Positions 430-60,630 of a DNA stretch of 64,000 nt are shown here, piece by piece. Positions within the stretch are counted from its first letter, which is position 1. Every line of letters begins with the position of its first letter. Position numbers and translations under genes: made by a program. The notes under the pieces are model-generated. The model ran no database searches and was not told the DNA's origin. It was given only the letters and a program-made list of their open reading frames with translations. The stretch is taken from positions 15,807 to 79,806 of the IMG/VR virus record IMGVR_UViG_3300028027_000054, one strand, 5' to 3'. The DNA is from a virus.

Positions 430-2919
430 ATGGCATCCTTCATACCCAATGTAACTGATATTTTTCCGGACCCGTCCATGTACAGACCGGACTTCTCATT
501 CTTAGACACCATGCTAAGGAGAAGGCAAGCTATGTACAACCAGGGCTTTGCCGAGTTGTCTAGTAAGTACAGCAGTCTTGCAAAGAACCTGACCAATCCT
601 TATAACTCTAAGGTGAGGAACCAGTTCCTGCAAGAAGCCCAGAACGAACTGAAGAACCTTTCTGCCATGGATCTTTCCCAGCAGCAGAATGTTCAGACAG
701 CGACAAACGTATTCACCCCTCTATATGGCAATCAGAATGTAATGGGTGATCTTGCTGTTACCGCTCACTGGGACCAGCAGGAACAGATCGCTGAGTCTTT
801 CCGTTTAAAAGATGGGGGAAAAGAGTTTAGCCAGGACAACATTGACTTTGTAAGGATGCAGCGTAATGCATTCTCTCAGGACAGACCTGAAAATGTAGGT
901 TCTTACCTGGGCAGCAAACGTTCTTATACTCCGTATTATGATTACGCCAAGGAGTATAAAGAAGCCATGGCGGCATACAAGCCAAATAAATCAAAGATCA
1001 GCAGGCCTGATGGTCGTGGTTATATGATCACAGAAGAAGACGGCTCTTATGACGCTGAGGATGTAAAGCTCTATTTGAGCAGCGTGCTCAGTAGTAAAGC
1101 AAAAAGCCAGATGGCTATTGAAGGTGTAGTAAGATACTCCAACAACCCTGCTGTATTTGATACGTATACCAAAGGTCTGGGTAAAACTGAAAAGTTCCTA
1201 CAGACAAGGATTCAGGAGTTTGAAGGAAAAATGATGGCTGAAAAGGATCCTGCAAAAAGACAGGAATACCAATCAGGTTTGGACATGCTTAAAGAAAAGC
1301 TTGAGGAAGTTGGTGGTGAGAAAGTAAACATGCAGAACCCTGATTACATCAGCAGAAACAAAGAGAACATAGCCTCTAACCTATACTACTCTGATAAGAT
1401 CGCAGAGCTTTCTAAAGGGTATGCCCGTAAAGATTATACCTACGAGATCAAAGCCGACGATACCTATCTTACACGCCTGCGTGAAGCTGGTCTGAACCAA
1501 AGACACAGAGAGACACTGGCAGACAACGAAAAGAACCGGTCTAATGATCGTCTGCTCAAACAAGTGGATCTGGGTCTGCTCACCTTTGATACCCGTGGTA
1601 ACATTGTCCGTGTTCAAGACCAACCGTTTACAGTACCTACTACGGAAATGAAAGAAGGGTTGGGTTATAAACAGTTTCAAGAGCAGAAGAAGTCTGTAGA
1701 AAATGCCCAGATAGATGCCCGCAATAATCTTAAGAAATACTTCTACGCTACCAATCCTATTTATGAACAACAGGGTATTAAGATTACTGACCCTAAAGTA
1801 GAGGCAGGTTTTGACCAGTTTATTACTGATCAGACAACGTTGTTAAAAGATAATCCTAAGAGTAATCAACTGTCTACAAAGTTCTTGCAGTTTAGAAGTA
1901 CGGTAGAAGCTGCACAGCTTCAACTTGCAGGCTTTGCTGAAAAGGAAAGAAAAGCTAACGTTGCTTTTAAAGATGATCTAAAAGGTGTTAGAGAAGAGGT
2001 TAATAAAATCTTTGGGGGTGGGTCTAAAGAATTAAATATGTATGATCCTTCTACAGGTAAATACACCAAGGTTAAAATAAATGCTGACAAGTTTATAGAA
2101 CTGTATTTGAACTCTCCTAATAATTATAATCTAGGACCTAATACTAAAAATGGAGTGGTAGACGAGAATGGTCTGAATATTGTTATTGATGGAAAAAAGA
2201 TGACTTTTTTAGCAGGTACAGGTGCTGAATTCAAGCAAGCCTTTAAGCTTTTAAGTTCTAATAATGCATCTATTAGCAATGCTACTAAGCGTTTTAATCA
2301 GATGTATGACCAGCAGTATGTTCAGAATGAAGTGATGCTTCGTCCTATTAACGAGAAAGATCCAGTGGTGATAGCTGCTAAAAACAACATGCAGAACGCT
2401 ACATTGGTTAGTGCTGACAACATTGTGATCAGCGGATACAACAAAGGCAAGTACATGTTTGGTTTTAAAGCAGGTGTTAACAAAGACAACCTTCCTTCAG
2501 AAGAAGAGTTGGCTGCCATGGGTGTAAAACGTGCACCTGGGTATACCGATGAGAATCCAAAGTTTGTGGTAGAGAGCACCTTATTTGCTCCACGTACCGG
2601 TGAGACTCAGTATAGTGCAAGAGAACAAGTTATTAATGACTTCTTCCAAGGTATGGGTAACGCTACAGAGAGTGATCGTGAAGTGGTGTATGGAACTCCT
2701 TCAGGTATGTTGACAGTAGGTGAAGGTCTTAATCCAATCCAGATTATTAAAACATCTCGTTACGGACAGTCAGACACCTATGACATAAAAGATGAGTTAA
2801 CCGGTATTATGATTAATGCTGGTGTTCCATTAAATATTGATATGGTAATAGAAACCATGAGAAAAATTGAAACAGATCCTACGTTCTTTTCAAGGATGAG
2901 AAATCATAAATCTAAATAA
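430..2919 (+). CDS. Virion-ejected/cargo protein, 829 aa (crAss-like vRNAP cluster)
   Basis: Long, helical/coiled-coil-like ORF, first of four giant co-oriented ORFs around the vRNAP. Call rests on synteny. Confidence 0.65.
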   Translation: MASFIPNVTDIFPDPSMYRPDFSFLDTMLRRRQAMYNQGFAELSSKYSSLAKNLTNPYNSKVRNQFLQEAQNELKNLSAMDLSQQQNVQTATNVFTPLYGNQNVMGDLAVTAHWDQQEQIAESFRLKDGGKEFSQDNIDFVRMQRNAFSQDRPENVGSYLGSKRSYTPYYDYAKEYKEAMAAYKPNKSKISRPDGRGYMITEEDGSYDAEDVKLYLSSVLSSKAKSQMAIEGVVRYSNNPAVFDTYTKGLGKTEKFLQTRIQEFEGKMMAEKDPAKRQEYQSGLDMLKEKLEEVGGEKVNMQNPDYISRNKENIASNLYYSDKIAELSKGYARKDYTYEIKADDTYLTRLREAGLNQRHRETLADNEKNRSNDRLLKQVDLGLLTFDTRGNIVRVQDQPFTVPTTEMKEGLGYKQFQEQKKSVENAQIDARNNLKKYFYATNPIYEQQGIKITDPKVEAGFDQFITDQTTLLKDNPKSNQLSTKFLQFRSTVEAAQLQLAGFAEKERKANVAFKDDLKGVREEVNKIFGGGSKELNMYDPSTGKYTKVKINADKFIELYLNSPNNYNLGPNTKNGVVDENGLNIVIDGKKMTFLAGTGAEFKQAFKLLSSNNASISNATKRFNQMYDQQYVQNEVMLRPINEKDPVVIAAKNNMQNATLVSADNIVISGYNKGKYMFGFKAGVNKDNLPSEEELAAMGVKRAPGYTDENPKFVVESTLFAPRTGETQYSAREQVINDFFQGMGNATESDREVVYGTPSGMLTVGEGLNPIQIIKTSRYGQSDTYDIKDELTGIMINAGVPLNIDMVIETMRKIETDPTFFSRMRNHKSK

Positions 2920-2932
2920 CTAAGTAGTTCCC

Positions 2933-5900
2933 ATGGCTGAAGACTTTCCGCAACAAATGCTGAATACCGGTATTCCTGCAGGACTGCTTGATGGTAAAGG
3001 TGTGCCAGTATCTCCTTGGGCTACAACGCCTGCAAGTCAGGTAAATGACCCTAATGTTGATCCGAGACATGTTTTAATGGGTCAGGTAACTCGTGCTATA
3101 CCAAGTAGTCTTAGTGGTCCTATTCGTTCTTCTGCAAGAGAAGCTGAAAAATATATTGGGCAGGACTTTGGATTCCTGCCTTCTTCTGTCCGGGATAATG
3201 AAGACTTCTATGCCCAGTATCAGTCTGGTATGGAGAAGATCGGTAAAGGACTATTAAAACTCCCACTATATACCGTAACCAAACTTGGATCAGGTGTAGG
3301 CTTTATTGCCGGTATGGCCAATCCAGTAAACTGGTTTGCAGAAGATGGTTACATCTCTGCTGTAGCTGACAACTCGATCAGCGGGTTCTTTGACAGCTGG
3401 GAACAGGATATCAAGAACCAATGGTTACCCACTTTTCAGGAGGCTGAAGACCAGGATAAAGGTTTCTTTGCAAGAGCAGCTACTGATGTTGACTTCTGGA
3501 CTGAAGACTTTGTAGATGGTTTGGCGTTCATGGCGTCTGCTTGGGTACCAGGTATGGCACTTAGTAAGGTGGGAGCAGGAGCTAAAGCCATTGCAGGCTT
3601 GGCTAAGTTTGGATCCAGGGGACTGGGAGCTGTTGGGGAGTCTGTAGAAGCTGTTGCAGCTACTACAAACTATTTCAAGAATGCAGCTAAATATGCTAAG
3701 ACCTTAGATAAGTTCAATGCCTGGGCTCTGGCAACTTCTTCTGAAGCTATGTTTGAAGCCAAGGGTGTCAAGGAAAATGTTTTAAAGTCTTTGGAAGGTC
3801 TTGACATGCCTGAGTCTGAGAAAAAGAAGATAGCTGGTGATAATGCCCGTAATGCATTCTTGATGAATGCTGCTCTTCTTGGTGCTACCAACGTCTTTGA
3901 ACTTTCACTGGTTTCTAAAATGCTTAATAAAACCAGTGGTGTAGCGTCAGGTATTACAGGTGGTGCTAAGCTGGGAGAAGATGTAGCCGTAAAACAGGCT
4001 ACAACCCAAGTGGGTAAGTTCCTGGAAAGCGGGTTTGGCAGGTTTGCTAAAGACGCTACTGCTGGTGTATTCCGTGAAGGTTTTATAGAAGAGAATGGAC
4101 AGCTGGCTATTCAACGATTCAATGAACAGTATGGTGCTGCCGGTAAGGTGGCAGACATGCTGGATTTTAATACTTATGCTGAACTGGGTGGGAACTACCT
4201 GAAGCAAACCTACGGAGCACTGGCAGGTGATGACACAGAAGCTGCTACCAGCATTGGTCTGGGTGGTATCCTGGGAGGTGGTATGACCGCTATCGGTAAT
4301 GCCCGCCAGGCTCCTAAAGATAAACTCACTACAGAAGAGGCCGTTGACTACTATAACAAGTCCCAGGAAAGCTGGTTGAAGTTTGGTAACATCTACCAGA
4401 CAGAACAAGTTGTTACTAAAGACGCCAGTGGTAACGATGTAGTCACTGAAAAGATAAAGCTGGATCAGAACAACCAGCCGATGATGGACCAGCAGAAACT
4501 GGCTGGTATAGCCAGCTCGGTAAGATCCAACGCTGCTGCTATAGATCAGACGGACAATGACACAAACATGACCCGTCGCAACCTAGTAAGGGATAACGCC
4601 TTTGCAGATTTTGTACTGGCCCATGTCAACGCCAACATGGAAGATACCCTGTTGGAGAAGCTTGATGCTATTGCAAACAGCTCACCTGAAGAGCTGGCCA
4701 AGCTCGGTTTTGTAGCAGATAAGACCCTGCCTGAACAGATTGCCCGTTATAAGTCACTAGCCAGTACGATCATCAAGCAGAATAAGATCATCAATGCAGA
4801 TATCATATTTGATGGTTCTAAAGAAGACGCTGCAAGAAAATCCCGTCTGACGCAACTTGCTGCCCAGCAAGCTGTGTACAAAGGTCTTGCTGCAGAAGAA
4901 CAGGTAAAATATAATGAGATCCGTAACCAGGCCGTCAGCTCTGAAAACTCTTCTTTGTCAGATGGTCTTGTAGAACAGCTTAACGGTATCAAGCTTAGGA
5001 TCACTAGCCAGGAACAGTTCATCAAGGAGCTTAAAGCTCAACCCAATAATCTCACCAAGTCACAGATAAAAGTAGCACAGGATCTTTTAGATAACCTTAA
5101 AGAACAGCTGGCAAGTCTGGAGAAGACCAACGAGCTGTCTGTAAAGAACCTGAAGACGTTCAACAACGGGTTATACCAGTTTGAGAAGGATGCCCGCAAT
5201 GAAGTGGCTTATCTGATTCCCATGCTGAAAAGGATGAAGTACAAAGGTGAGCTAGATAACCACGTTGAAACCCTCGGAAAAGAATGGGGATACTATGCAG
5301 ATTTCAATGATGGTAAGAAGAACTTCCTGGACATGTTCATTGAACAGCAGATCCAGGGACCTGTAAATAGCATTATAGAAGCAGAAAACAACCAGCCTCA
5401 ACTTCCACCAGCTGCTCTGGCATCGCCACAAGGTCCAGCTACTCCTCCTCCTGGTCCTTCTGCAGGGCCACAACCTGGTGGTGCTGCACAGACACAACCT
5501 GCCCCTACTCAGCAACAGACTTATGATGACCTGGAGAAGTTCCTTCAGGCAGAGTATGACATGGTAAAGCAAGCTCTGGAGGCTCAGGGAAACCCTGTGC
5601 CCAGTTATACAGACTGGAAACGTACTGCAGGCATAGAAGCTACTAAGCGTTTTATGGCTAAGAAAGGACAGCAACAACAAGGTGCACAGCAACAACCTGC
5701 AGCTACCCCTGCTCTTACAGAAATGGAAAAAGCAGAAGAAAGGTTAAGACAAATATGGAACACCATAGGAAACGGTCCAGGTAGAAACGCAATAGAAGAT
5801 GGTTGGACTGAGTCATTTGGACTTTTAGGTGATACTCTGAGTGTTGGTGGAGACAACCTGCAAGCTCATGGTATGGGTAAATCCGGGTTTGCTTACGCTA

Positions 5901-8461
5901 TAAAAGACTTGTTTGATCTATTCAAAAAAGGAATAGATCCTAACAGAGGTGGTGGTCGTTTGTATACTGCCCCACTTGCTGTGTCTAAAGAAAATAAAGC
6001 AGCTGCTTCTGCAACAGGAACATCTGGAGGAACAGCTTATGCAGACGGTTCATTTATGTTGGTTGCCAAAAAAGGAATTCTTGGCATAAGCAATGTAAAT
6101 GATATTGGTGGTATCCTTGTTAACAGCGGCTTAACCGATATCAACCCAGAAATTCTTACAGAACTAAGAAAAGCTTTCCCTGGTTTAGTTATAGAAAGTT
6201 ACAAAGGTGCTAAAGAACTAGTACAGAAACTTAATAATAACGCTCCACAAACTTCTACTTCTGCACCGGCAGCTCCTGTAGTTACAGATGTTGAAGAACC
6301 CGCTGAACAAACTACCAAAGAAGAACAACAGGCTCCTGCATCTACGTTAGAGAAAGAACTGAATGACCTGGCTAACCAACTCCGTAATGATGTTGGTATT
6401 CGGACTGAGCTTAGGTTCATGAAAGCTGGATCTATTGGATATGATAAAGACGGTAACAAGTACCAGTTAGTATCTAAGAAAGATAAGTACGGACGCAGCC
6501 TTGAGTATCGTAAGAACGATGGACAGGAACAAAGCTTTAATCCAAAGACAGCTTCTCAGCAATCTGGCAGCCTGGATTATTATCCTGAAGGGTTTGTTAA
6601 CTTATACAGTAAGAACCCCAAAGCTACCTTTGACAAGTACGAGAAAGATAAAGCTGCCATAGAAGAAAAGTACAGGCAGATAGAGGCTGCTAAAGCCCAG
6701 GCAGAGCAGAGTCAGTCTCAAGCAGACCAGACTGATCCGGAAGAAGAGGATACATCTAAAGATGTCAAGGACTTTGTACAGGACATTAACAAGAACCGTA
6801 CCCAGTCTAACCAGAACAATGCTTTTGCCAATGCGGAATACCAGGAAGGTTTCAGGCAGGTGGCTCCTTCTAACTCACTGGCCAACACTACAGATCTGGT
6901 AAACGTAGTAGAGTTTGCAGCTAACCAGATCCGCTATGAAAGAGGAGATGTAAACAAGAACTATGTCTTTGATGTAGCTACCAGCACTTTTATGCCCGGT
7001 CAAAAGGTTACATATAAAGTCATGGTGGATGGTTTTGAACCCGTGGTGAACCGTCTCACTGGTGAGATGTATGATAAGAGTGCTCTATACAATGAGAACT
7101 GGAATGCTGTACAGAGCATGTTTGACTTTATTCCTATCGGGGTGTTTGCTAACATCCGTGGAAAAGAAGTCATGATCGGTACCATACATGAACCACAGTG
7201 GATTGAGTATAAGATCGGTAACAAGTATCCGCACATTGCTGTTCCTCAGGACCAGATTGACCAGGCAGTGCCTGATGTAGTAAAAGAACAGGTCCAAAAA
7301 AATAGAGAACTTCGTAAGTTTATCTTGGAGAACTACAACCAAAATCATAACTTTGTTATAGAGGGAGTTGTAGAAGATAAATCCATGGGTATACTAAGAA
7401 CTACAGAATCTGTTGATCCTATCAGCAAGCGGGTAAATCCGAAGATTGCAGAAGGCGGTACAGACAACCGTCATGGTATGTTTGGTATCGTCAAGGACGG
7501 TATGATCCAGTCAGACCGTAATGTAGAAATAGACAACATCATCCCTACAGAATCTTTCTCTCCTCAAAATATTGCTAACTATCAGGGTGTAGCAGTGCTT
7601 ATGTTGCCGACACCACTGGGCAAATGGTTCCCTTCCTTTATCCAACTGCCCAATGTTTCTACAGAGCAGTCTGAGTTTATCATTGAAGCATGGAAAGCTT
7701 TTACAAAACAGACCAATAATCCGGAAATAGTAAAAGCAGTGTATGATGCCATGGGTCTTACCCAGTCTGCCGACAGTTTTGCTGTTGGTGTACTGAGAGA
7801 TTACATCCACCACTACATCACAATAGTAGATGAGAAAGGAATATCCCGTACAGGAACAGGTAGTGAGCTTTCTCCAGGCAGTGCCAGGATAAACATTACA
7901 AACAAGGGAGGCCTGGAACTGCAGGTAAAAGGTTTAGACCGCAGTTGGTATACCACCGCTGAGCCGATCATGAAAGCAGAAAACCTGCCGGTAGACTACC
8001 TGCAGAAGATGAGCAACCTGAAAACCACTATTAGGTTTGAAAATGCTAAGAATGACAGCTTAAAAGGGATCAACTCTACAGACAAAGCCACCATACTTTC
8101 TATTAAGAACGGTAAGCTGGTCAAAGAAAACATAACGTACAACCAGTACATTATGGACCGTGCAGGAACTTTTGTAGACAACGGTATCCCAAGTAAGAAT
8201 GCCTTTGGTGACTGGGTGTATTTTGCCAACCCTGTGGTGAAGATGAAAATGACCAATGCTTCAGATCCTAATGAAGGACAGTCTGAATCTAAAAAAGAAG
8301 TAACACCTACTCCTACAGTAGACCAGGTTAACACACCTCGTGAAGATAAAGGTGCGGCTCTCCTGGCAGCTCTTAAATCCAAGAGGCTTCAGGAAGAGCA
8401 GATGGAAGAACAGAAGAAAAACTGTACTAGCCTGAGAAGCAAGCTTGATAACATAATGTAA
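2933..8461 (+). CDS. Large virion-ejected protein, 1842 aa, with N-terminal hydrophobic Gly/Ala-rich segments and inserted domains
   Basis: Membrane-like segments (e.g. LGSGVGFIAGMA, IGLGGILGGGM), a coiled coil, and P/Q/A-rich linkers flanking inserts. Lies just upstream of the vRNAP. Confidence 0.7.
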   Translation: MAEDFPQQMLNTGIPAGLLDGKGVPVSPWATTPASQVNDPNVDPRHVLMGQVTRAIPSSLSGPIRSSAREAEKYIGQDFGFLPSSVRDNEDFYAQYQSGMEKIGKGLLKLPLYTVTKLGSGVGFIAGMANPVNWFAEDGYISAVADNSISGFFDSWEQDIKNQWLPTFQEAEDQDKGFFARAATDVDFWTEDFVDGLAFMASAWVPGMALSKVGAGAKAIAGLAKFGSRGLGAVGESVEAVAATTNYFKNAAKYAKTLDKFNAWALATSSEAMFEAKGVKENVLKSLEGLDMPESEKKKIAGDNARNAFLMNAALLGATNVFELSLVSKMLNKTSGVASGITGGAKLGEDVAVKQATTQVGKFLESGFGRFAKDATAGVFREGFIEENGQLAIQRFNEQYGAAGKVADMLDFNTYAELGGNYLKQTYGALAGDDTEAATSIGLGGILGGGMTAIGNARQAPKDKLTTEEAVDYYNKSQESWLKFGNIYQTEQVVTKDASGNDVVTEKIKLDQNNQPMMDQQKLAGIASSVRSNAAAIDQTDNDTNMTRRNLVRDNAFADFVLAHVNANMEDTLLEKLDAIANSSPEELAKLGFVADKTLPEQIARYKSLASTIIKQNKIINADIIFDGSKEDAARKSRLTQLAAQQAVYKGLAAEEQVKYNEIRNQAVSSENSSLSDGLVEQLNGIKLRITSQEQFIKELKAQPNNLTKSQIKVAQDLLDNLKEQLASLEKTNELSVKNLKTFNNGLYQFEKDARNEVAYLIPMLKRMKYKGELDNHVETLGKEWGYYADFNDGKKNFLDMFIEQQIQGPVNSIIEAENNQPQLPPAALASPQGPATPPPGPSAGPQPGGAAQTQPAPTQQQTYDDLEKFLQAEYDMVKQALEAQGNPVPSYTDWKRTAGIEATKRFMAKKGQQQQGAQQQPAATPALTEMEKAEERLRQIWNTIGNGPGRNAIEDGWTESFGLLGDTLSVGGDNLQAHGMGKSGFAYAIKDLFDLFKKGIDPNRGGGRLYTAPLAVSKENKAAASATGTSGGTAYADGSFMLVAKKGILGISNVNDIGGILVNSGLTDINPEILTELRKAFPGLVIESYKGAKELVQKLNNNAPQTSTSAPAAPVVTDVEEPAEQTTKEEQQAPASTLEKELNDLANQLRNDVGIRTELRFMKAGSIGYDKDGNKYQLVSKKDKYGRSLEYRKNDGQEQSFNPKTASQQSGSLDYYPEGFVNLYSKNPKATFDKYEKDKAAIEEKYRQIEAAKAQAEQSQSQADQTDPEEEDTSKDVKDFVQDINKNRTQSNQNNAFANAEYQEGFRQVAPSNSLANTTDLVNVVEFAANQIRYERGDVNKNYVFDVATSTFMPGQKVTYKVMVDGFEPVVNRLTGEMYDKSALYNENWNAVQSMFDFIPIGVFANIRGKEVMIGTIHEPQWIEYKIGNKYPHIAVPQDQIDQAVPDVVKEQVQKNRELRKFILENYNQNHNFVIEGVVEDKSMGILRTTESVDPISKRVNPKIAEGGTDNRHGMFGIVKDGMIQSDRNVEIDNIIPTESFSPQNIANYQGVAVLMLPTPLGKWFPSFIQLPNVSTEQSEFIIEAWKAFTKQTNNPEIVKAVYDAMGLTQSADSFAVGVLRDYIHHYITIVDEKGISRTGTGSELSPGSARINITNKGGLELQVKGLDRSWYTTAEPIMKAENLPVDYLQKMSNLKTTIRFENAKNDSLKGINSTDKATILSIKNGKLVKENITYNQYIMDRAGTFVDNGIPSKNAFGDWVYFANPVVKMKMTNASDPNEGQSESKKEVTPTPTVDQVNTPREDKGAALLAALKSKRLQEEQMEEQKKNCTSLRSKLDNIM

Positions 8462-8477
8462 TCTTATCCTATACCCT

Positions 8478-11400
8478 ATGATTTGTCCTAACATTACCAG
8501 TCCGGAGTGGAAAGCTTTGGTTGCCAAGGTCGGTGAAAATCGTGCTTGGAAAGAGTTTTTGATATATGGAAAAACCCCCAGTGCTGATAACTATGAAATC
8601 ATAGATGCAGCAGCTGTGAAAGATAATACAGGTAAAGCATCTGAAGTTTTAGAATTTAGAGCTTTTCAGAGTTTTAAAGAGTATGAAGAGTTTCTGGAAG
8701 TAAAGAGGGATTTTACTAACGATTTTGCTAGTGCCTATCTAAAGCATTCTGCTGCTATAGATTTTGTTGATAGAATCTTTGATAAAGTTTTTCCTGGTGA
8801 AATGACCTGGGGTAACTACATTATTGATCCTAAAACAGGACAGACTAAGTTTATAGTAGATAATGAACCATTAGCAGGTATGACTGCAGAAGAGTTAAAC
8901 AAAATGGTTCGTGCTAAGTTCAACACATGGTTTAAAGCAAACCTTAAACGAGAGTTGGATACAGAAACCATTAACTTAAATGGTAAAGAAATAAATATTA
9001 AAAATCCTTCTACCACTGAAGAAAGAGTAGCACGTACAATTTTTGATCTTTTTGCTACCTTTAAACCAGCAGTTGAAAATTATGTATTTTCTAAAGAAGG
9101 TTTAGAAGCTGATGTTATTAATGACTTATCAGTTAAATACAAAGTTGTTGTCTATAATCCGGACAATGATGAAGACAAACAAGTGTTTCGTTCTATCAGG
9201 ACAAAATCTACTGAGCAGATTGCAGCAGGTATTAGTAAGGACCTGATCCGTTCACAGAAAGATCTGAAATATACTTCTCACATCATGGCCAGTGTGATCA
9301 ACACACTGGGTGATATAGCTCCTAACAGGAAGCTGGAGGTATCTCCGGCCCAGGCTTTTAATACCGTAAAGGGTATTTATGCTGAAGTGGCTGATAACCT
9401 GAAGATGGCCCTTAACGGTATCGTTGGTTCTGATCAGGACCTGGCGGAAGTAAAAGCTTCAGCGTCTTATAATGACATTCTCAATGAGTTTCCGGTATTG
9501 GCTTATGTCAACAGCTATGACGATATGGTCAGTGCTGCAGAAACGTATGATACTATAGTATCCAACTTTGATAAATATAAAGAATCTGTTGTAGCAGAGC
9601 TGGCCCGTAAGGGTATCCGTATGGGAAAAAACACCATACAGATGGTAGATCCTGCTGATGTAGCTGTACAGGAAGTTGATGACGCAGAAAACACAGAGAT
9701 CAGCCAGGATGAAATCGGTGATCGTTATGACCGCAGTGTTTTTGAAACCAATCCCCGTGACACAGCCAGCGTAAGGGTCAAAGCTCTTGTGCAAACCATT
9801 AAGACCGGTGAGTACGAACTAGGCATTCCCGTATATGCAGATCCAAATGATGTGTTTGCAGATATCCTGCAGGCTGGCAGTGAAATGGCACTTACTGGTT
9901 TTACGGATGCTTCCGGTAAGTTCCAGGCATTTAAGTTTGCCATCATCAAGCGTGCTGAGGCAAGACCCTATCTGAATGATTTTCTTACCAAGCTTAACCG
10001 CTTTGAGCAAAACAACGAGTGGGAAAAGATCAATGACATTCTAACTTTTGCCACTAAAGCATTTGCTAACGAGACCCTGCTTCTTTACAAGACCCGTAAA
10101 GATGGTAACCAGGTAACTGGTATCACTGACGTAAAAGTGATCAACGCCAACCGTGACACCGTGGAAGACCAGGTGTCAAGAGAGTGGCTGGAATCCCACA
10201 AGCAGTCTGCATTCTTTAATCGTTCTTCCCTGAATGAACTTAAAGTCAATCCTGAGAAACTGCAGAGACTGGGTAAGATCATTGAAGAAGGTAAAGCAGC
10301 TGTAGGACCAGCCAAGACCGCTAAGTTTAAAGAGTTCTTTGCTACACTGGGTATTGAGTTTACTGACGCTGAACTGGCTTATATAACTCCCCGTTTGTCT
10401 AAGGCACTTGGTAAAGGACCTGACTTTGATATCGTCTTTGGAAAGAAGAACCTTTTAGATAACATATACACTTCTTTTACAAAAAACGCCTCCCAGGTAT
10501 TTGATGATAACTATGGATTTCAGGATGAAAAAGGTAACATGCGTAAGCTGGCTACCCTGTACTATGAAGCCAACCCTGGAAGATATAAGCTGGCCTCAGC
10601 CCAGACTGCAGACGGTAAGCAGAAATACCTGTACATCCTGACCAACTTTATTGAAAAAAAGAAACGCCAGTGGAACCTGGGTCAGTACGCCAACGTCACC
10701 AATAGTGCTCTTGCCCGTCCCAACAGGTCTTTCTGGGATAAGGTAAAAAGCGGAGTGAACAGTTTTATACCCCAGTACTTTAACGGTATCCGTGAACAAC
10801 AAGCGGGTAAAGACGGTAAGGTGAGAAAGTCCCTTACTGAAAAAGAGCAGACCGTAACCATGTTGCTCAAGCATCAGGAGAATCTTAATGTCGCTACCTA
10901 TATCAACTTCACGTTGTCAGATAAGACCACTACCATAGAAACCAAAATGACCAAGGAGTTCTTTGTAGATGGTAATGACCAGCCTCTGGGTAAGGGTCGT
11001 GATTATATTGTAAACGAGAAAGGTGAGCTGCAGTTTACATCAGGCCTTGGACAAAGAGCTTATGATGCATTTGTAGCTCCTGAGGTGAGCCGTATCTTGG
11101 CTGCCATTAAACATGGCAAGGATATTAACCTGGAGAACTTCGACATAGCCAGTAAGCTGTTTTATTTTATTCCTTCCCTGAACTCCAATCCAAACCTGGA
11201 AGAGTTCCGTAGTGATCTGTATGCTGGTCAACTGACTATAGACCAGCTTAATGCCAAACATGGCACCGCTGTAGGTCAGGCTGTACTGGAAGACATGCAG
11301 CAGTCTGCAGAACAACAGATAGACCAGTTTATTGCCAACGGTATTTTGAAAGTAGAAAATGGTGCATACTCATTCCCAACTTCTATAAACGGGTTCAAGA

Positions 11401-14400
11401 ACACAGACTATGTCAACCGGTTGCGTCAGTCAGGGGTTAAAGGTCGTGACGCAGCACGTCTGATGCTGCTGGACATGAAGCTAAATTACCAGAACACCCA
11501 GGTAAAGATGATCCAGTTCCTGAGGTTTGATCCGGCCCTGGCATTTAAAAAGTTCAAGGGCTTTACCAATCCGGGTACATTTACAGACATATCTGCTGCA
11601 GACAGGATTAACCTGGTTTCTACCACATGGGATGAATTCTCCAAGCGTGCTGCTGCCTTGATTGCCCCTGGTAGCCAGGGAAGCTATAGCTGGAAGACCA
11701 AGGATGGTGAGACTTATTCTTCTCCTTCTTATGAAGCAGTTACTGCTGCTGACGTAGACTACAAGATTGGAGAAACAGATAATACTACAACAGATGCTCA
11801 AGAATACATTACACTTAATGAGCATATAGATAACCTCATGTCAGAAGGTAAGATCCCTCTGGAGATCTGGCAGTCTATCTATGATAAAATTGAAAAAGCC
11901 GGTCCTGGTGGATACTATGAACTCAGCGGTGAAGAGCTGGGTTATGTATTCACACCTACTAAACCTGTACAGGTAAACGACGTAGACGAAGGATCTGCAG
12001 AAGCAGGTCTGAACCGTATTGACTATGTAAAGAGCTCCCGTTATCCGTTGATTCCCCAGCATGAAGCAGGAAGTGAGCGTGATAAGATGCGTGGCTGGAT
12101 GGAGCGTAATAACATCCGTGCCATCAACTTTGCTTCAGGCAAAAAGCTGGGTCGTCCTGTAAGATCAGTTACACTATTTAACGAAAATGGTTCTGAGTTT
12201 ATAGAACCCTCTGCCAATGATACAGCTGCTGCCAGGCAAACGCTAAGCCGTGAAGGTCTGCGTACACAGCAGGAGATTCCGCACCAGAAAGACCAGATCC
12301 GTACGGTGTCTCAGATGAACCGTACCCTGTTTGATAATATGCTGGAGGAGAGTTTCTCTCTAAAGGGTATCCAAAAGATAAGCGGTACAGAAGCAAAGGG
12401 TTTAAAAGAACTGGTACGCTCTCGTTTGTTTGAAAAGCAGGCTGAAAAACTGCAACAGGAACTGGGAGATCTAAACAGATCCCATCGTGGTCTGCACCGT
12501 TTACTTAAAGATGTTATTCTAAATGACACCACAGGAAGCTATGGTGAAAACGATCTTAAGAGTATAGAGCTGGATGAAAAGACCGGCAAGTTTAAACTCC
12601 CGCTTGAGCAGCAGTTTAAACTCAAGAAGTTTCAGGGACTGATCAACTCTTTGATCAACAAGAACGTCATGCTTAAAGTAGAGGGATCCAGCTTTGTGCA
12701 GGTCTCTGGTGTGGGTGCTAAGTTCAACTTCTCCAACCTTAGTAAAGGTGTAAAGAGTGGAATCATCTGGACGGATAGCTACGCCAAGAACTTTAAAGAC
12801 GGTGACGTTAAACTAAACTACATCCGCAAAGAGGGTGATCAGGTGAAGCCTGCCCAGGTGATTGTGTCCCAGTACCTGCGTGACAAAGAAGGAAACCTGA
12901 TTGATCTGTCTCAATATATCACTGAAAAAAACGGGGTAAAGATCCTGGATACGTCTAAGTTCTCTCCTGAAATGTTTGAGCTCGTGGGAACACGTATTCC
13001 CAACCAGTCACATCCTTCCATGCTTCCCATAGAAGTGGTAGGTTTTCTACCGGCTTATATGGAGAACACCATCATAGTCCCAGATGGTATCACCGGTCAG
13101 ATGGGTTCTGACTTTGACGTAGATAAACTCTATGCTTACATCTCTAAGATGGAGCAGAAAGAAGACAAGTTTGTTCCTGTACAATATGAACTGAACAGTA
13201 CAGAAGACGTAGATAAGCTTAGTGAAGAACAGCTTGGTCAGCTCTACCGTGACATTCACTGGATGGCCCTGACGCACCCGGCTGCTTACGATAAGATCAC
13301 CAAGTCTATTGACATGCCAGAGGTAAAAAGAAAGGTGGCGGAAAGAGAAGCTGAGCTGAAAAAGTATGGTATAGCTGATGACAAGGGTGTAATGCTTCCC
13401 CTGGACTTCATGACCTCTATCAACCGATTTAACGATAACCGTTCTGGTAAAGTGGGTGTAGGTGTGTTTGCCAACCTGATCTCTGCTCAAGCAGACTTCC
13501 AGGACAAGGTACTCAGGCTGGGTATGATGCAAGATGACGTTGCAAAAGAAAAGCCTATCAAGATCAGGCTTTCTAAAAACGGAAAGGTTGTAGATCTTCT
13601 TTACCTGGGTAAACCAGGTACTTCTAAGTCTTTTGTAGGTAAGACCCGTACTATATCTGAGAACCTGAACATCATGTTTACGGAGTCAGTGGACAACGCC
13701 AAGAACCAGTATCTGCGTGAGTTCAACTGGGAAGAAAAAGCTATGAGTGCCATTGGTGTATTTGAAATGCTTACTGATGAGAATGGCAATGCAGCTCCTA
13801 TTGAGTTTGTCATGGACCTGACTTCTCAGGAAGCCATTAAAGAACTTTTTACATCTATAGACCAGAAGCAGGACTCGTTTGGAGAGTTTGACAGCAGTGC
13901 ACTAGATACCGCCACCTTAGAACTTCAGTTTAAGTACGCAAACGCCTTGGTAACCGGTGGATACTTTTCCAGTATAGCTGAGGCACAAGAGTATTTAGTA
14001 GACGAGAACCGTGACCAGGCACTGGATCCGGAAACCCTGGATGATATGTGGTTGGTAGGTAAAGCCATCAAGTTACAGGAAGAGCAAAAGCAAGAGGCTC
14101 TAGAAAAGATAGCAAAGGATAAAGGCTACACGTCTGTTCGTGATCTGATGTTAAAATACACCACTGTTCAACATGACAGTCTGGAGCTCTTTAAGAGAAT
14201 GGAGGACATAGGTCGTGAGCTAAACACCATCCTTGGTAGCGTATATACCTATACTAAAGGTATTGGTCCCAATGTATTTGCCACACGTCAGAAGCTTACC
14301 CAGCTGAATAAACTTTCTGGTTCTACAAACTTTCTTGGTCTTACTAATGTAGCTGGTGTTATCAAGCGTAATGACAGCACGGGTAAGATAGAGATCGAGG

Positions 14401-53324: not shown

Positions 53325-54006
53325 CTTCTTTTGTTGTTAGTTCTAAATAGATTTCTTTTACATCAGTGTCACAGGTGCCGATGCTTATCTCTTCCATCAT
53401 TACTACGAGCGTATCATCAACCAGTTTAAAGCTGCTACGCTCAAACCTGTCAGCCTGCCAGATACTTCTATATTCTGTAGTATCTTCCATCTGACTGTAA
53501 GCTTGGATGGCTTTTTCTACCTGTTCTTCAAGCTGCTTCTTGACTTCTTGAGCAACTTTAGTATGCTCATCAGTCAGAAAACCGTTGTTGACAATAAAGG
53601 CTACATCTATGTGAGGAGTTTCACCTTCTATGTTGTACTCTAAAGCATTAAACCACAGGCTTTCAGGCACAGTGATCTTGATGGGATACTCAAAGTCGTA
53701 GTTCTCATCTTCACTGTAGTAGTCTGTACCTACAAATGCTTTCTCTGTAGAGTTGTAAATGGCTTCCCCGCTGGCTGAGAACTCACCGGCCCAGGATCCA
53801 TAGTCCAGGTGATCATACATCAGGTCAGTAAGCTGACGGATCTCGTCGTTTTCTGCATTGTCTGACACCTGCTGACCATCTATGGTAAAATATGCCCAAC
53901 CGGAATCTCCGCCACCTTCCCATTTGATACCTAACTCTTTACCTTGTGCTACCTGCTCATCACACCATTTAATCAAGTCTGATGTTGCTATTACTTTCTG
54001 TGACAT
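53314..54006 (-). CDS. Acidic hypothetical protein (DUF6878-like)
   Basis: WEGGGDSG motif. Confidence 0.45.
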   Translation of the reverse strand: MSQKVIATSDLIKWCDEQVAQGKELGIKWEGGGDSGWAYFTIDGQQVSDNAENDEIRQLTDLMYDHLDYGSWAGEFSASGEAIYNSTEKAFVGTDYYSEDENYDFEYPIKITVPESLWFNALEYNIEGETPHIDVAFIVNNGFLTDEHTKVAQEVKKQLEEQVEKAIQAYSQMEDTTEYRSIWQADRFERSSFKLVDDTLVVMMEEISIGTCDTDVKEIYLELTTKEDEY

Positions 54007-54397
54007 CTTTTAAAGTTTTTTCTGTTACATAATCAAGTTTTTGGTCTTCTATTTCACGGACCATTTTTCTACCCTCACCGGGTTTAAACATCCAGCCTTC
54101 CGTAGTCATGCAGTCTAAATACTGCTTGATCGTAGGAATAAAGCCGATGTCTTCTTTTAAGTGCTGCTCACCAATAAACCTTACAGGAACATTCTTCCCG
54201 TCTGAGTTAGTGATGACCACACCAAAGATTTGCTCACACCAGAAGATGCCTTCTGCGTGGTGTCTCAGAGCACGATGTCTCATGTCTGGATAGTTAGCCT
54301 TGGTTTCATCAAACCAGCTATGGATTTTTATATAGTCTTGCCAAACTCCCCCGTACTTGCGTGCGGAAGAGATAGCGTGATGATATGGATGTGACAT
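53969..54397 (-). CDS. DUF6915-like His-rich protein
   Basis: HPYHHAISSARKYGG ... IH.WFDETK ... RHRALRHHAEG ... GEQH..ED. Confidence 0.7.
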   Translation of the reverse strand: MSHPYHHAISSARKYGGVWQDYIKIHSWFDETKANYPDMRHRALRHHAEGIFWCEQIFGVVITNSDGKNVPVRFIGEQHLKEDIGFIPTIKQYLDCMTTEGWMFKPGEGRKMVREIEDQKLDYVTEKTLKDVTESNSNIRLD

Positions 54398-57214: not shown

Positions 57215-58327
57215 TTAACCCAGCTTGTCTAAGATCTTCTTCTCCAATCTTTTGTTGGAGATCCGACCGTATATAGCTGCGGTTTTCATGGTGACGCCCA
57301 GGAGTTCTGCCACTTCTTCCAGGTCAAACCCGTTGTCCATCAGCAACATAGCAAAAGAGTGCCTGGCCGTGTGGACCTTGATCTTACGGTCTACACCAGC
57401 CATTTTGGATATGTCCTTGACATAGTCTCTCATGTTCTGTTCTGATATATTAAACGGGTTATCTCTACAATATGTGAGGATCTCTGAGAGGCGGGAGTGG
57501 ATGGGCATGGAAACGACCCTTTTGTTCTTTTTGGTCTTTAACAGGATCCGTGCACTCGACACCATGGACTCATAGGAGAATTTCTTAAAGTCACTGATCC
57601 GGTAACCGGCATAACAGGACAGTAGAAAGTAATAGCCGCTCATCTTCATCATGGGTCTCTTAATGGCGTCACAGACCGTTTTGAACGAGGCAATCTCATC
57701 TTCAGTGAGGTATTCAGGTATACCTTGTTCATATACAGGAACAACGTACGCCTTGTACCGGTCCTCTTTGATGAGACCACGGTTCTTGGCCTGTTTTAAG
57801 AACCCCTTGATGTTCTTCATCTTCTTGTGGACGGTGTTATGATGCATCTTTTTACTTCTCAAGTGCTGCTCGTACCAGTTTAACCAGGATACGGAGATCT
57901 TGCTGAAGTACAGATACTTATCATACTCTTCCAGTTCTTTACGGATGTCTTCATAGACTTCTATGGTAGCGTCAGCTTTTTTACCACGCATCTGCTGCTC
58001 ATAGTCTACAATGAAATCTGTAAAAGTTTGCTTGGACAGAGCTTCACCACGCACAGCTTTCTGGAGCATTTCCAGGCTGACCTGGGGTACATCCATTAGA
58101 TCCAGGAGGTTCTGTTCAATATCCACCATCTGCTTGTTGAGCATAGCCGTGATCTTGGCCCTATGGGGATGATTGATGACCTCCCGACCCTGAAGCTGAT
58201 CTGGTCGCAGCTTGAAGTCTGTAGGAGCGTAAGCATGCATCCGGTTAAATACTACACGGATGGACAGTTTGTGGAGATTGTCTTTGTCGGGTTTAGCCTG
58301 GAGGTAAGGCTTGATTGTGTATCCCAT
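57215..58327 (-). CDS. int: Tyrosine integrase (Bacteroidota Arm-DNA-bind/SAM-like type)
   Basis: N-terminal arm-binding-like region; catalytic GYRISD, KTKK, HTARHSFA, LLG(V), IYG. Confidence 0.92.
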   Translation of the reverse strand: MGYTIKPYLQAKPDKDNLHKLSIRVVFNRMHAYAPTDFKLRPDQLQGREVINHPHRAKITAMLNKQMVDIEQNLLDLMDVPQVSLEMLQKAVRGEALSKQTFTDFIVDYEQQMRGKKADATIEVYEDIRKELEEYDKYLYFSKISVSWLNWYEQHLRSKKMHHNTVHKKMKNIKGFLKQAKNRGLIKEDRYKAYVVPVYEQGIPEYLTEDEIASFKTVCDAIKRPMMKMSGYYFLLSCYAGYRISDFKKFSYESMVSSARILLKTKKNKRVVSMPIHSRLSEILTYCRDNPFNISEQNMRDYVKDISKMAGVDRKIKVHTARHSFAMLLMDNGFDLEEVAELLGVTMKTAAIYGRISNKRLEKKILDKLG

Positions 58328-58343: not shown

Positions 58344-58556
58344 TTTACAACAGGTTTTACAACATGTTTACAACAAAGGGGCTAGAAAATGCCATAATAT
58401 GCCACTTTAGACCCCTGATAACAGGCTAAAAATCAAAAGGCCCCTGGTAATCAGGAGCCTTCTGCGGACCGGACGGGACTCGAATGTTATTCTGAAACCC
58501 TTGTCTGGTTTATGTTCTAGCGTGTTAATCAAACAATTTACAACGGGTTTACAACA
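58344..58556. mobile_element. attP site: tRNA 3'-end core with arm-type repeats
   Basis: Core 58463-58484 (rc TTCGAGTCCCGTCCGGTCCGCA). TTTACAAC(A) repeats at 58344, 58356, 58367, 58537 and 58548. Lies between int and xis. Confidence 0.85.
58435..58461 (-). terminator. Terminator just downstream of the attP tRNA fragment
   Basis: rc AAGGCTCCTG-attac-CAGGGGCCTTTT. Confidence 0.7.
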
Positions 58557-58559
58557 TTA

Positions 58560-58808
58560 TCAGAACCTGGGACTGTCTCCCATGATTTTTTCTTTGCTAT
58601 AAAACCTCGTTCCACCTACACCGACACGGTACATATCCGGTGTGATTCTGCCTTTACTTACATACCCAATGAGGGTTACTTTCTTTATACCAAGCAGTTC
58701 ACAAACTTGTTGTTCTGTGAGCCACTCATCCTGTTGGACCAACGCTTGTTTTACCAGGCGTTTTAATTCCAACCAGTCTTTACGGGGTACAGTGACTTGA
58801 TCGGACAT
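58560..58808 (-). CDS. Excisionase-like (MerR/AlpA-type HTH) protein
   Basis: WLTEQQVCELLGIKKVTLIGYVSKGRI ... G.RFY; adjacent to attP. Confidence 0.75.
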   Translation of the reverse strand: MSDQVTVPRKDWLELKRLVKQALVQQDEWLTEQQVCELLGIKKVTLIGYVSKGRITPDMYRVGVGGTRFYSKEKIMGDSPRF

Positions 58809-58814
58809 AGCAAG

Positions 58815-59372
58815 TTAAACTTTTTTAGTAAACTTTTTGTACAGATCTGTGAAACGTCCGGTAGCTGCATGCATAGGTGAGTCTTTATAACCCGGCATGT
58901 CTTTTAGTTCAATCTGGTCTACCAAATGCCCGTCTTCATTGACCTGTTTACCTTTCCTGATAATCTCTTTGATCAGCGTTTCTTTGTGATCTTCTGAATC
59001 AATACTGACGATCAGGATCTCAGCTTTGATCGGGATGCTTTTCCAGTCATCCATGATCTTGTCAGGATCTACGGTTTTAGCATCAGCTATACGCATCCAG
59101 GCTTCAGAAGCCCAGCCGATAGCACGGATGTCAATCCGTTCACGGACTTTTTCTGCAATCTCAGGAACAACGTTGTCTATAAACTGGTCTTTGCTTGCCT
59201 CATCTTTCATATACTTAGAGTCTATAGGAACAAGACAGATAGCACTTTTGCCATCTGGTTTGTGTGTTCCCAAAACCGTAAATGAAGGACTAAGGCCACC
59301 AGATTCTACGATCATCTTGGTTATAAGTTCCAAGTAATCTTCTCTCAGGACTTTGAATTCTTCTTCTGTCAT
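58815..59372 (-). CDS. Hypothetical protein
   Basis: 185-aa ORF with a SEAW motif. Confidence 0.6.
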   Translation of the reverse strand: MTEEEFKVLREDYLELITKMIVESGGLSPSFTVLGTHKPDGKSAICLVPIDSKYMKDEASKDQFIDNVVPEIAEKVRERIDIRAIGWASEAWMRIADAKTVDPDKIMDDWKSIPIKAEILIVSIDSEDHKETLIKEIIRKGKQVNEDGHLVDQIELKDMPGYKDSPMHAATGRFTDLYKKFTKKV

Positions 59373-59382
59373 GATTTAAGTA

Positions 59383-59967
59383 TTAATCCCACCAATGTTT
59401 GAGTTTATAATGCATCAGCTTCCAGAAAATGCGTTCACATTTTTCCTGGTTATAACTTGACACTCTGTAGGCAAGTCTTTCTGTTTCTGATGCTTTGAGC
59501 TTGTATTTTTTACGAAGTTTCTTGGCCGTACGTTTATACTTAGCCAGATAGTCTTCCAGATGTTCTTCAATAATGGTATCCTGCATGGCCAGGTAATCAC
59601 CGGTGACATCCACCGGTATAAAGTCATATGACTTCTTGATGTAGTCAAACATCTCAACTTCATAGTAACCATGCTTGATGCGTTCCAATAGGTTAAGGGC
59701 AAGAGTGATTTCTTTATTGACTTCCTCCACGCCATAGAACCTGTTAGCTACAACTAAGGTTTCCCTGGTGAACTCAAGTTTTTTCTGAAGGATATCAGTG
59801 ATAAAAGCATTATCCCAGTGCCGGTCTCTATAGATGGTCGGCATCCATCTGATGATGTTTGTCACGCCACGCACAAATTCCTTAAGCCAACTGGGTACAT
59901 AACGTAACCAGTTGTTTCTTTCCCAAGCAGTGTCTTTAGGTGTCTGAAGTTGCACGTAACGTTTCAT
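59383..59967 (-). CDS. Hypothetical phage protein
   Basis: W.PTIYRDRHWD ... WWD. Start reassigned to MKRYVQ. Confidence 0.6.
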   Translation of the reverse strand: MKRYVQLQTPKDTAWERNNWLRYVPSWLKEFVRGVTNIIRWMPTIYRDRHWDNAFITDILQKKLEFTRETLVVANRFYGVEEVNKEITLALNLLERIKHGYYEVEMFDYIKKSYDFIPVDVTGDYLAMQDTIIEEHLEDYLAKYKRTAKKLRKKYKLKASETERLAYRVSSYNQEKCERIFWKLMHYKLKHWWD

Positions 59968-60112
59968 TGTTTTCTTTTTCTGGATGATGGAGAGGTTCGC
60001 AAGTTTCACCTTGGCAACAGGGTTGAATGTTGTTTCTACAGACATGACACTGCACGTGACCATGCACGTTTACGCCAGGTGTTTGTTGATGACAAATAGG
60101 ACAAGTGATCAT
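59936..60112 (-). CDS. 58-aa Cys/His-rich zinc-binding protein (not in ORF track)
   Basis: MITCPICHQQTPGVNVHGHVQCHVCRNNIQPCCQGETC... Confidence 0.65.
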   Translation of the reverse strand: MITCPICHQQTPGVNVHGHVQCHVCRNNIQPCCQGETCEPLHHPEKENNETLRATSDT

Positions 60113-60186
60113 AGTGAATTAAGTTTTTAAAGATTAAAAAAACCAGGGTGTGGAAACACCCCGGAAAATTTAAAAAATGGGACCAG

Positions 60187-60630
60187 TGGAGGTAGCCGGA
60201 TTTGAACCGGCGTCCAATAAAGAAGACAATAGATAAATTCATTACATGCTTAGTACTGACGATCAAGAGGGAGATCCCCCGTCATCTGCACCGTAAGGGC
60301 TGACCTTGTTATGGTCCGATCCACCACCTGGTTTTGACATAACCAGGAAAACCGCCAGGCGTACAGTTTACCGCCCAGAAACTATCAGACATTGTGACCA
60401 TAGGTAGTCTGACTAGCAGTGTCCGTTTCTGTTCCCAGGATGGACTTCCCGGTAGGTTAGGCTGCGATTGCAACTTCACCGAAGATAGAAGCCAAGATAG
60501 CTTCACCTTCTGCTACACGGTCAGACTGTGTCGTGCCGTTTATTGTTTTGCAGTTTGTTTAAGGACCACTTCTACCAAAGGTCCGCATGTTTACTTACCT
60601 CTCGCTCTATTGTCAATACCTGTTACCCCC
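60187..60630 (-). ncRNA. ssrA: tmRNA
   Basis: 5' GGGGGTAACAGGTATTGAC and 3' GGACGCCGGTTCAAATCCGGCTACCTCCA form an acceptor stem with G3:U70, discriminator A and a T-arm. ACATGC/GCATGT helix, a pk1-like GGACC/GGTCC stem, and a tag ORF at 60537-60457 ending AIAA*. Confidence 0.92.

Follow-up and report, generated by a model that had tools for sequence, protein, structure and literature searches.

The window analysed here, a stretch of 64,000 nucleotides corresponding to positions 15,807 to 79,806 of the IMG/VR record IMGVR_UViG_3300028027_000054, carries a tmRNA gene on its minus strand. Rfam cmscan aligned positions 60184-60630 (minus strand) of the window to positions 1-374 of the tmRNA model RF00023, with 70.2 bits and an E-value of 2.9e-25; family membership was taken to be a score above the gathering score of 47 bits across the full model. 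This span and the slightly shorter one of 60187-60630 describe the same gene, the latter stopping at the discriminator A. The features of the gene and of its 3' flank, from the 5' end of the RNA onwards, are the following.

60187-60630, minus strand: complete one-piece tmRNA gene (ssrA), 444 nt to the discriminator A, from the RF00023 match and sequence reading
60624-60630, minus strand: 5' strand of the acceptor stem, GGGGGUA, which holds G3 of the G3:U70 alanine identity pair
60545-60587 (approximate), minus strand: putative PK1 region, a hairpin GGACC...GGUCC with an A-rich leader, 5' of the resume codon, placed by the Rfam alignment
60535-60537, minus strand: resume codon GGC (Gly), preceded by a conserved UAAAC and aligned with the resume codons of relatives
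60460-60537, minus strand: tag frame of 26 codons, translated as GTTQSDRVAEGEAILASIFGEVAIAA
60481-60519, minus strand: codons 7-19, invariant tag core RVAEGEAILASIF, from 43 distinct DNA versions
60460-60480, minus strand: codons 20-26, degron-like C-terminal end GEVAIAA, one among several exchangeable ends
60457-60459, minus strand: tag stop TAA, from the sequence and its translation
60254-60456, minus strand: pseudoknot-rich variable body (PK2-PK4 region), from pairwise alignments and Rfam insert blocks
60195-60211, minus strand: T-arm GCCGG-UUCAAAU-CCGGC, read directly
60187-60194, minus strand: 3' strand of the acceptor stem, UACCUCC, with the discriminator A at 60187, read directly
60136-60164, minus strand: intrinsic-terminator-like hairpin CCGGGGUG-UUUC-CACCCUGG with a T run, about 20 nt past the tmRNA, from a terminator scan

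The initial annotation had described a 444-nt tmRNA without an encoded CCA and had proposed the Infernal tmRNA model as a check; the full-length RF00023 match, well clear of the gathering score, bears out this description. Since CTG follows directly after the discriminator A, the CCA is absent from the gene, as it is from all 19 viral genes of the tag-independent scan presented below. A missing CCA is common among tRNA-like genes, where it is supplied by the host CCA-adding enzyme, and does not exclude membership. The tRNA-like domain consists of a 7-bp acceptor stem with G3:U70, a discriminator A and a T-arm whose loop is of the GTTCNANNC type. In the acceptor stem, GGGGGUA pairs with UACCUCC (60188-60194) and covaries with GGGGGUG/CACCUCC in relatives, while the T-arm stem of relatives features compensatory changes (GGGG/CCCC, CGGG/CCCG, AAGGG/CCCUU).

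At the PK1 site, relatives carry another self-complementary hairpin, GUGG...CCAC, so that two hairpin versions occur within the family, an observation which concerns the first hairpin and its leader. Pairwise alignments placed all the size differences among related tmRNAs (358-782 nt) within the PK2-PK4 region. The extra sequence of the long members (L002:110-891, L004:2397-3080, L006:2017-2659 and L188:4514-5172) is found there, and these inserts hold no long ORF, the longest being 54 aa in L002. Downstream of the tmRNA, most relatives have a comparable hairpin, in which the loop motif (GUUUCUAC at the L002-L013 sites, UUUC in the window) is kept and the stem covaries. The word CATATGGCAAGCAA(GCAA)TCG is conserved between the tmRNA 3' end and the hairpin in many relatives; the word and the hairpin could be a candidate processing or regulatory signal.

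The tag frame opens without an AUG, on a G-N-N resume codon, and closes with a hydrophobic-Ala-Ala end and a stop (GCA ATC GCA GCC TAA). In relatives, the codons aligned to the GGC of the window are GCA or GGC. The initial annotation had GGC at 60537 opening a 26-codon tag, and the translation and the ARAGORN calls in homologues agree with it. Run over the window, ARAGORN reported no tmRNA; in homologues of 356-431 nt, however, it called a tmRNA with the same resume position and a tag of 26-27 residues. Because every member of at least 447 nt is missed by ARAGORN, a size limit is the most likely cause of the miss, and the window gene (447 nt) probably lies outside it. Rfam at the gathering score passed 29 of 30 related viral tmRNA loci, the exception being the 782-nt L002. 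As ARAGORN-based phage annotation overlooks tmRNAs longer than about 440 nt, the number of phage tmRNAs is probably underestimated.

The absence of smpB from the window, also claimed at the outset, holds for the entire 79.8-kb record (approximately 61% complete according to CheckV), in which PF01668 was unmatched at E<=1. Since SmpB is missing from a record of about 61% completeness, the partner of the RNA is presumed to be the host SmpB.

The tmRNA gene is located within a long minus-strand block which runs from small ORFs through helicases, primase, exonuclease and DNA polymerase, the replication arm, and the giant ORFs upstream (up to 3645 aa) fit a crAss-like assignment. Downstream of the tmRNA lie the following elements.

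59383-60063, minus strand: P0001, conserved downstream neighbour, whose homologues align from Met33
58815-59372, minus strand: P0002, second conserved downstream neighbour, about 40% identical and syntenic in relatives
58560-58808, same strand as the tmRNA: HTH_17 excisionase-like gene
about 58460-58490: tRNA-Asp-like 3' fragment, attP-like, between the integrase and excisionase-like genes and not at the tmRNA
57215-58327, same strand as the tmRNA: tyrosine integrase

P0001 directly follows the tmRNA in six related contigs (L003, L004, L006, L007, L009 and L013) with 68-77% identity, and in all six the order tmRNA-P0001-P0002 is found without integrase or excisionase. P0001 had no match in Pfam or PHROG, and for both proteins Atlas returned viral hypothetical clusters only. 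Across P0001, P0002 and five further neighbours, the comparison with Pfam, PHROG and Atlas gave only a weak HNH-like match, an HTH and DUF6915. The DUF6915 domain (PF21866, 1e-45; phrog_8143) belongs to a 142-aa protein at 53969-54397 (minus strand), a conserved phage protein of the replication arm.

The integrase and the excisionase-like gene 2 kb downstream were the reason for which a host ssrA at a prophage junction was first suspected. ssrA is a frequent integrase target, the tyrosine integrase and the HTH_17 gene share the strand of the tmRNA, and the tmRNA is 3.4 kb from the contig end; under this explanation the gene would be host DNA, either at a prophage edge or as a passenger of imprecise excision, with no role for the phage. 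The comparison with relatives largely refutes it, since int and xis are missing from them although the tmRNA and the two genes after it are present, and the attP-like fragment, which resembles tRNA-Asp, sits between int and xis. Moreover, the window has no second copy of the tmRNA 3' end, the upstream flank is made of small phage-like ORFs, one with a PHROG match, and purifying selection acts on the tag frame in many phage contigs. A host origin of the gene is thus very unlikely, the reading of the locus as an att site is discarded, and 60187-60630 is a phage gene rather than a host ssrA at a prophage junction. The integrase-attP-excisionase module of the window phage (57215-58808) is missing from the six close relatives with the same gene order and therefore appears to have been inserted into the replication arm recently.

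A search with a degenerate pattern of the tag peptide identified 12 IMG/VR contigs, and a tag-independent scan, based only on the RNA 3' end, returned all 12 again along with 6 more. The tags of the resulting 19 viral tmRNAs, window gene included, are all 25-30 residues long. Typical tmRNA tags are of about 10 residues and end in AA for ClpXP, and in 115 bacterial tmRNAs from the tag-independent scan the tag length peaks at 10, with only 7 tags of at least 22 residues (range 22-31). The difference in long tags, 19/19 viral versus 7/115 bacterial, has a Fisher p of ~1e-17 and was obtained with nearly identical viral and bacterial 3'-end patterns, an added CT requirement after the discriminator being the sole difference. 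The unusual length attributed to the tag was thereby upheld, all 19 viral tags having at least 25 residues.

With the core alone (EGEAILA[ST]IF) as the pattern, the family grew to 25 viral contigs and 37 metagenome contigs, in 43 distinct DNA versions; marine and activated-sludge metagenomes are among the sources. Every match falls within a tmRNA tag frame of 26-27 codons, and each of the viral core loci checked holds a complete Rfam tmRNA. A search anchored on P0001 reached a distant phage (38% protein identity), whose tmRNA differs in its acceptor stem and encodes the tag VKSQSERVAEGEAILASIFASEYALAA. Replication-module proteins in common with the window are present at most of the loci whose flanks are long enough, so the family represents largely one broad phage clade. 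A few members belong to tRNA-rich contigs of 94-180 kb. In two of these, L181 (94 kb; 4017-12853) and L190 (180 kb; 845-5039), the core-tag tmRNA is found inside large tRNA arrays, that of L181 having more than 25 tRNAs; the flanks of these loci are without proteins common to the window, and the tag module is thus not limited to one phage clade. The gene is also dispensable, given that at least one close relative, L160, has the neighbouring gene and no tmRNA within 2.5 kb.

Blastn of the window tmRNA against 50,697 GenBank phage records gave no match, and ARAGORN found no tRNA anywhere in the window. In L011, L013 (12071-12169) and L017, the 5' end of the tmRNA is preceded at a distance of a few bases by a tRNA gene, likewise lacking an encoded CCA, which suggests co-transcription and RNase P processing in these three. 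A related phage contig carries a Hatchet ribozyme (L180:191-325, RF02678, 82.4 bits) about 8 kb from its tmRNA.

The 43 DNA versions share a common plan of 26-27 codons, in which 6 variable residues are followed by R[VI]AEGEAILASIF and by an end of 7-8 residues. The core is identical in 43/43 save for V/I at position 8; in the later scans the fixity of residues 10-19 was partly set by the search pattern, whereas R7 and A9, invariant in 43/43, lie outside it, and independent support for the invariance comes from the tag-independent scan and positions 7-9. On this same core different C-terminal ends are found (GEVA[IVM]AA, xSEYALAA, NEE[FY]ALAA, EEFALAA, xxEAVAA, SSVAVAA and ADDLVAA). The RNA around the tag also varies freely, with two PK1 hairpins, several acceptor stems (CACCUCC, CGGCUCC, CUCCUCC, CAGCUCC) and differing body lengths. 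The most conserved part of these phage tmRNAs is the tag rather than the RNA scaffold.

At the DNA level, Leu15 is written with 5 codons (TTR, CTN) and Ser17 with both TCN and AGC. Over codons 7-26 of the 14 closest members, there are 2, 1 and 13 variable sites at codon positions 1, 2 and 3, respectively, and the pairwise codon differences comprise 203 synonymous versus 48 non-synonymous. As the variation is nearly all synonymous, the tag peptide is under selection, and this in turn argues that the tag frame is translated. The same data bear on the proposal that the RNA is a decoy which soaks up host SmpB or blocks trans-translation, its tag frame remaining untranslated. There is a precedent in mycobacteriophage DS6A, for whose TLD-only RNA such a role was proposed, tmRNA being inhibited by a TLD-like molecule (PMC4131195); the lack of smpB in the phage record is in line with it. 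The window gene, on the other hand, has a full mRNA-like domain with resume context, 26-codon frame and stop, and substitutions biased to the third position, with Leu and Ser kept through multi-base synonymous changes, are expected only if the frame is translated. We regard the decoy as extremely improbable.

The tag of the window has a polar start, an acidic middle and a hydrophobic stretch over its last 14 residues, with a net charge of -3. An amphipathic helix was considered and dropped, the hydrophobic moment being not above that of shuffles. The initial annotation had read the tag as internally duplicated. The near-repeat GEAILA/GEVAIAA and the two CTATCTT words on which this was based do exist, but they are no better than chance: the observed score was reached by 129 of 5000 composition-matched shuffles for the peptide and by 316-781 of 2000 codon shuffles for the DNA words, which are not kept in relatives (e.g. 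GCAATCCTT in L005). Given these tests and the many alternative C-terminal ends, a duplication is not supported, GEVAIAA being one exchangeable end behind the invariant core.

Tags may also be exchanged as a whole. The tmRNAs of L011 (2046-2449) and L017 (4130-4559) are identical at 91/93 positions in the 5' domain and 90/110 in the 3' end, and their tags, GTSNVDRVAEGEAILASIFGEVAIAA and DNTNVELSNYTVESLLAELECSELELA (26 and 27 residues), are unrelated, with 47/84 identical bases. Near-identical scaffolds with unrelated tags indicate that tag cassettes are exchanged between scaffolds, and the cassette seems, judging by these alignments, to be swapped by recombination. The second tag type of this pair ends in ELELA, not in Ala-Ala. 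Other long tags are found with the same acceptor class in L016 (3313-3705), L018 (3893-4286) and L019 (5596-6005); among these are the 30-residue AESFDYAPSVAEADAFLEATGFVGAELLAA, whose gene lies next to four tRNAs on a contig of 198 kb, and the 25-residue GNTTIWDLINGTAVAESVDELALVA. Phage tmRNAs of this kind may generally encode long acidic-hydrophobic tags.

The length of the tag could have another origin, namely as a copy of the tag of the host lineage; the phage gene would then be an ordinary ssrA captured from the host to increase rescue capacity, and the core a trait of the host. A host origin is the usual view of phage tmRNAs (PMC9004378), and bacteria with long tags do exist, the 7 of 115 sampled tmRNAs with 22-31 residues belonging mostly to Omnitrophota. 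One of them, L080 (Omnitrophota UBA10174), has the tag ANNSYDVVAEAEAILAGAEAPALV, which resembles the phage tag (VAEAEAILAG versus VAEGEAILAS). Beyond length and this stretch the likeness ends: the other Omnitrophota tags are unrelated to that of the phage and Pro/Met/Val-rich, and the L080 RNA is GC-rich, has an encoded CCA and a different PK1. The Omnitrophota long tags (L024, L055, L083, L122, L136 and L080) are mostly rich in Pro, Met and Val and end in N or V, not AA.

Searches for the phage tag in bacterial genomes also argue against a host copy. Among 185,579 species-representative genomes, none had the longer tag pattern, which included the GEVA end and so covered cores with that end only. 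When 702 sampled genomes (401 Bacteroidota and 301 Omnitrophota) were searched with a profile built from the phage tags, the only matches were chance ones outside tmRNA, and the genome of L080 itself was not recovered either. In addition, the core is kept on several different RNA scaffolds, and phage replication genes are common to the window and most contigs with enough flank.

Sampled Bacteroidota tags (GENNYALAA, GNTQYAMAA, ADDYSYAMAA) are 9-12 residues long, the GNTQYAMAA group included, compared to 26 in the phage, and the gene is here phage-encoded. Bacteroidota tmRNAs nonetheless share with the phage RNA the G3:U70 pair, a PK1-like hairpin region, a G-N-N resume codon, a hydrophobic-Ala-Ala end and a pseudoknot body. 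The 5' domain of the GNTQYAMAA group is among the most similar to the phage RNA in the sampled bacterial tmRNAs, with the motifs TGGTTTTGACAG, CATGCAGTG and CACTTTAATCT and a tag start of the form G/A-x-T-Q; some phage ends (SEYALAA) also resemble ordinary Bacteroidota ends. In the 5' domain, the sampled bacterial tmRNAs reach an identity of no more than 0.70-0.75 with the phage RNA (median 0.65), and in this ranking the GNTQYAMAA-type Bacteroidota, Cloacimonadota and Omnitrophota are only slightly above background. BLAST of the tmRNA against the 401 Bacteroidota genomes matched only the T-arm and acceptor. The phage tag could accordingly be read as a host-type tag split by about 17 extra residues which include the invariant core. 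Overall, we consider it unlikely that the long tag is a copy of the host's own, and the tag module appears, on the genomes searched, to be restricted to phages.

The explanation we favour, and hold to be likely, is that of a working phage tmRNA which raises rescue capacity and whose invariant block is a second recognition site, giving a label specified by the phage. Ordinary tmRNA action is adopted as the default because of the established knowledge of trans-translation and the intact features of the RNA. Expression and tagging are predicted from the terminator and the peptide-level selection. The tmRNA would be transcribed as its own unit in the replication arm and ended by the intrinsic terminator, and would most likely borrow the CCA-adding enzyme, alanyl-tRNA synthetase, SmpB and EF-Tu of the host, the synthetase being proposed because of G3:U70 and the discriminator A. 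Once charged, it would enter stalled ribosomes and add Ala and the 26-residue peptide to the stalled chain, with release at TAA. The short, exchangeable end of the tag, A-[I/V/L]-A-A, is of the C-terminus type read by AAA+ proteases, e.g. ClpXP, which could then degrade the tagged chains. During infection, when mRNA breakdown stalls many ribosomes, the phage tmRNA would boost ribosome rescue.

Through the invariant block the tag most likely gains a second recognition site, which might be read by a conserved adaptor, protease or chaperone, and rescued chains would thereby receive the phage-specified label. Of the two roles suggested by the initial annotation, the rerouting of rescued proteins to another adaptor or protease is plausible, since an internal block that is invariant and selected at the peptide level is compatible with an additional recognition site; the other role, that of standing in for a host tmRNA cleaved by defence nucleases, finds neither support nor contradiction in the sequence. 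A bolder version, which we put forward as possible only, envisages a private form of trans-translation in the aquatic crAss-like clade and some other phages, with the core read by a dedicated reader. This reader might be of phage origin, or a host protease or chaperone distinct from the ordinary ClpXP pathway; phage-rescued chains would be sorted apart from host-rescued ones, and changes of the C-terminal degron would adapt the tag to different hosts, with the core left unaltered. No candidate reader of the tag was found among the conserved neighbours of the tmRNA.

In its textbook form, a tmRNA tag is a short C-terminal degron. To our knowledge, the determinants of tag length and of the internal residues are poorly known outside Proteobacteria and Mycoplasma. 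Here, more than 40 natural variants combine a fixed 13-residue block with changing flanks and scaffold, which marks the block as a functional unit, and the series doubles as a set of ready-made constructs for finding what reads it. Diagnostic tryptic C-terminal peptides predicted for the tag family are VAEGEAILASIFGEVA[IV]AA and IAEGEAILASIF... As dozens of related phage tmRNAs share the block unchanged and none of the bacterial genomes searched contained it, the phages seem to mark rescued proteins in a manner of their own. If the block is phage-specific, it would represent a new phage route to managing host protein quality control, and it could serve as an orthogonal degradation tag for Bacteroidota.

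Phage tmRNAs are known from the mycobacteriophage Bxz1 group and Bacillus phage G (PMC4131195), from the OM43 phage Melnitz, which has a two-piece tmRNA, within a survey reporting ssrA in 402 of 18,146 phage genomes (PMC9004378), and from huge phages (PMC7162821). The literature retrieved on tmRNA in crAss-like phages or on a shared phage tag module contained methods mentions only. Phage tmRNAs and long tags (Mycoplasma, Omnitrophota) are already known, and the conserved phage tag module seems to be undescribed. Shared with the known cases are a complete ssrA gene on the genome of a lytic-type phage, tRNAs as frequent neighbours, the lack of an adjacent smpB and a presumed role in sustaining translation during infection. 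The gene reported here differs from them in that the tag is the most conserved part, and in that ARAGORN-based pipelines miss the longer members. The closest precedent for the tag is the 27-residue SsrA tag of Mycoplasma, which is described as being read by Lon instead of ClpXP (PMC8403727, citing Gur and Sauer 2008). That tag is similarly about 2.5 times the usual length, has an internal hydrophobic stretch and provides a precedent for extra length carrying a change of protease specificity. It has no sequence similarity to the phage tag, its end is of the FA/FAFA type and its organism is without ClpXP, whereas in the phage tag the extra block comes on top of an end of the canonical A-[IVL]-A-A type.
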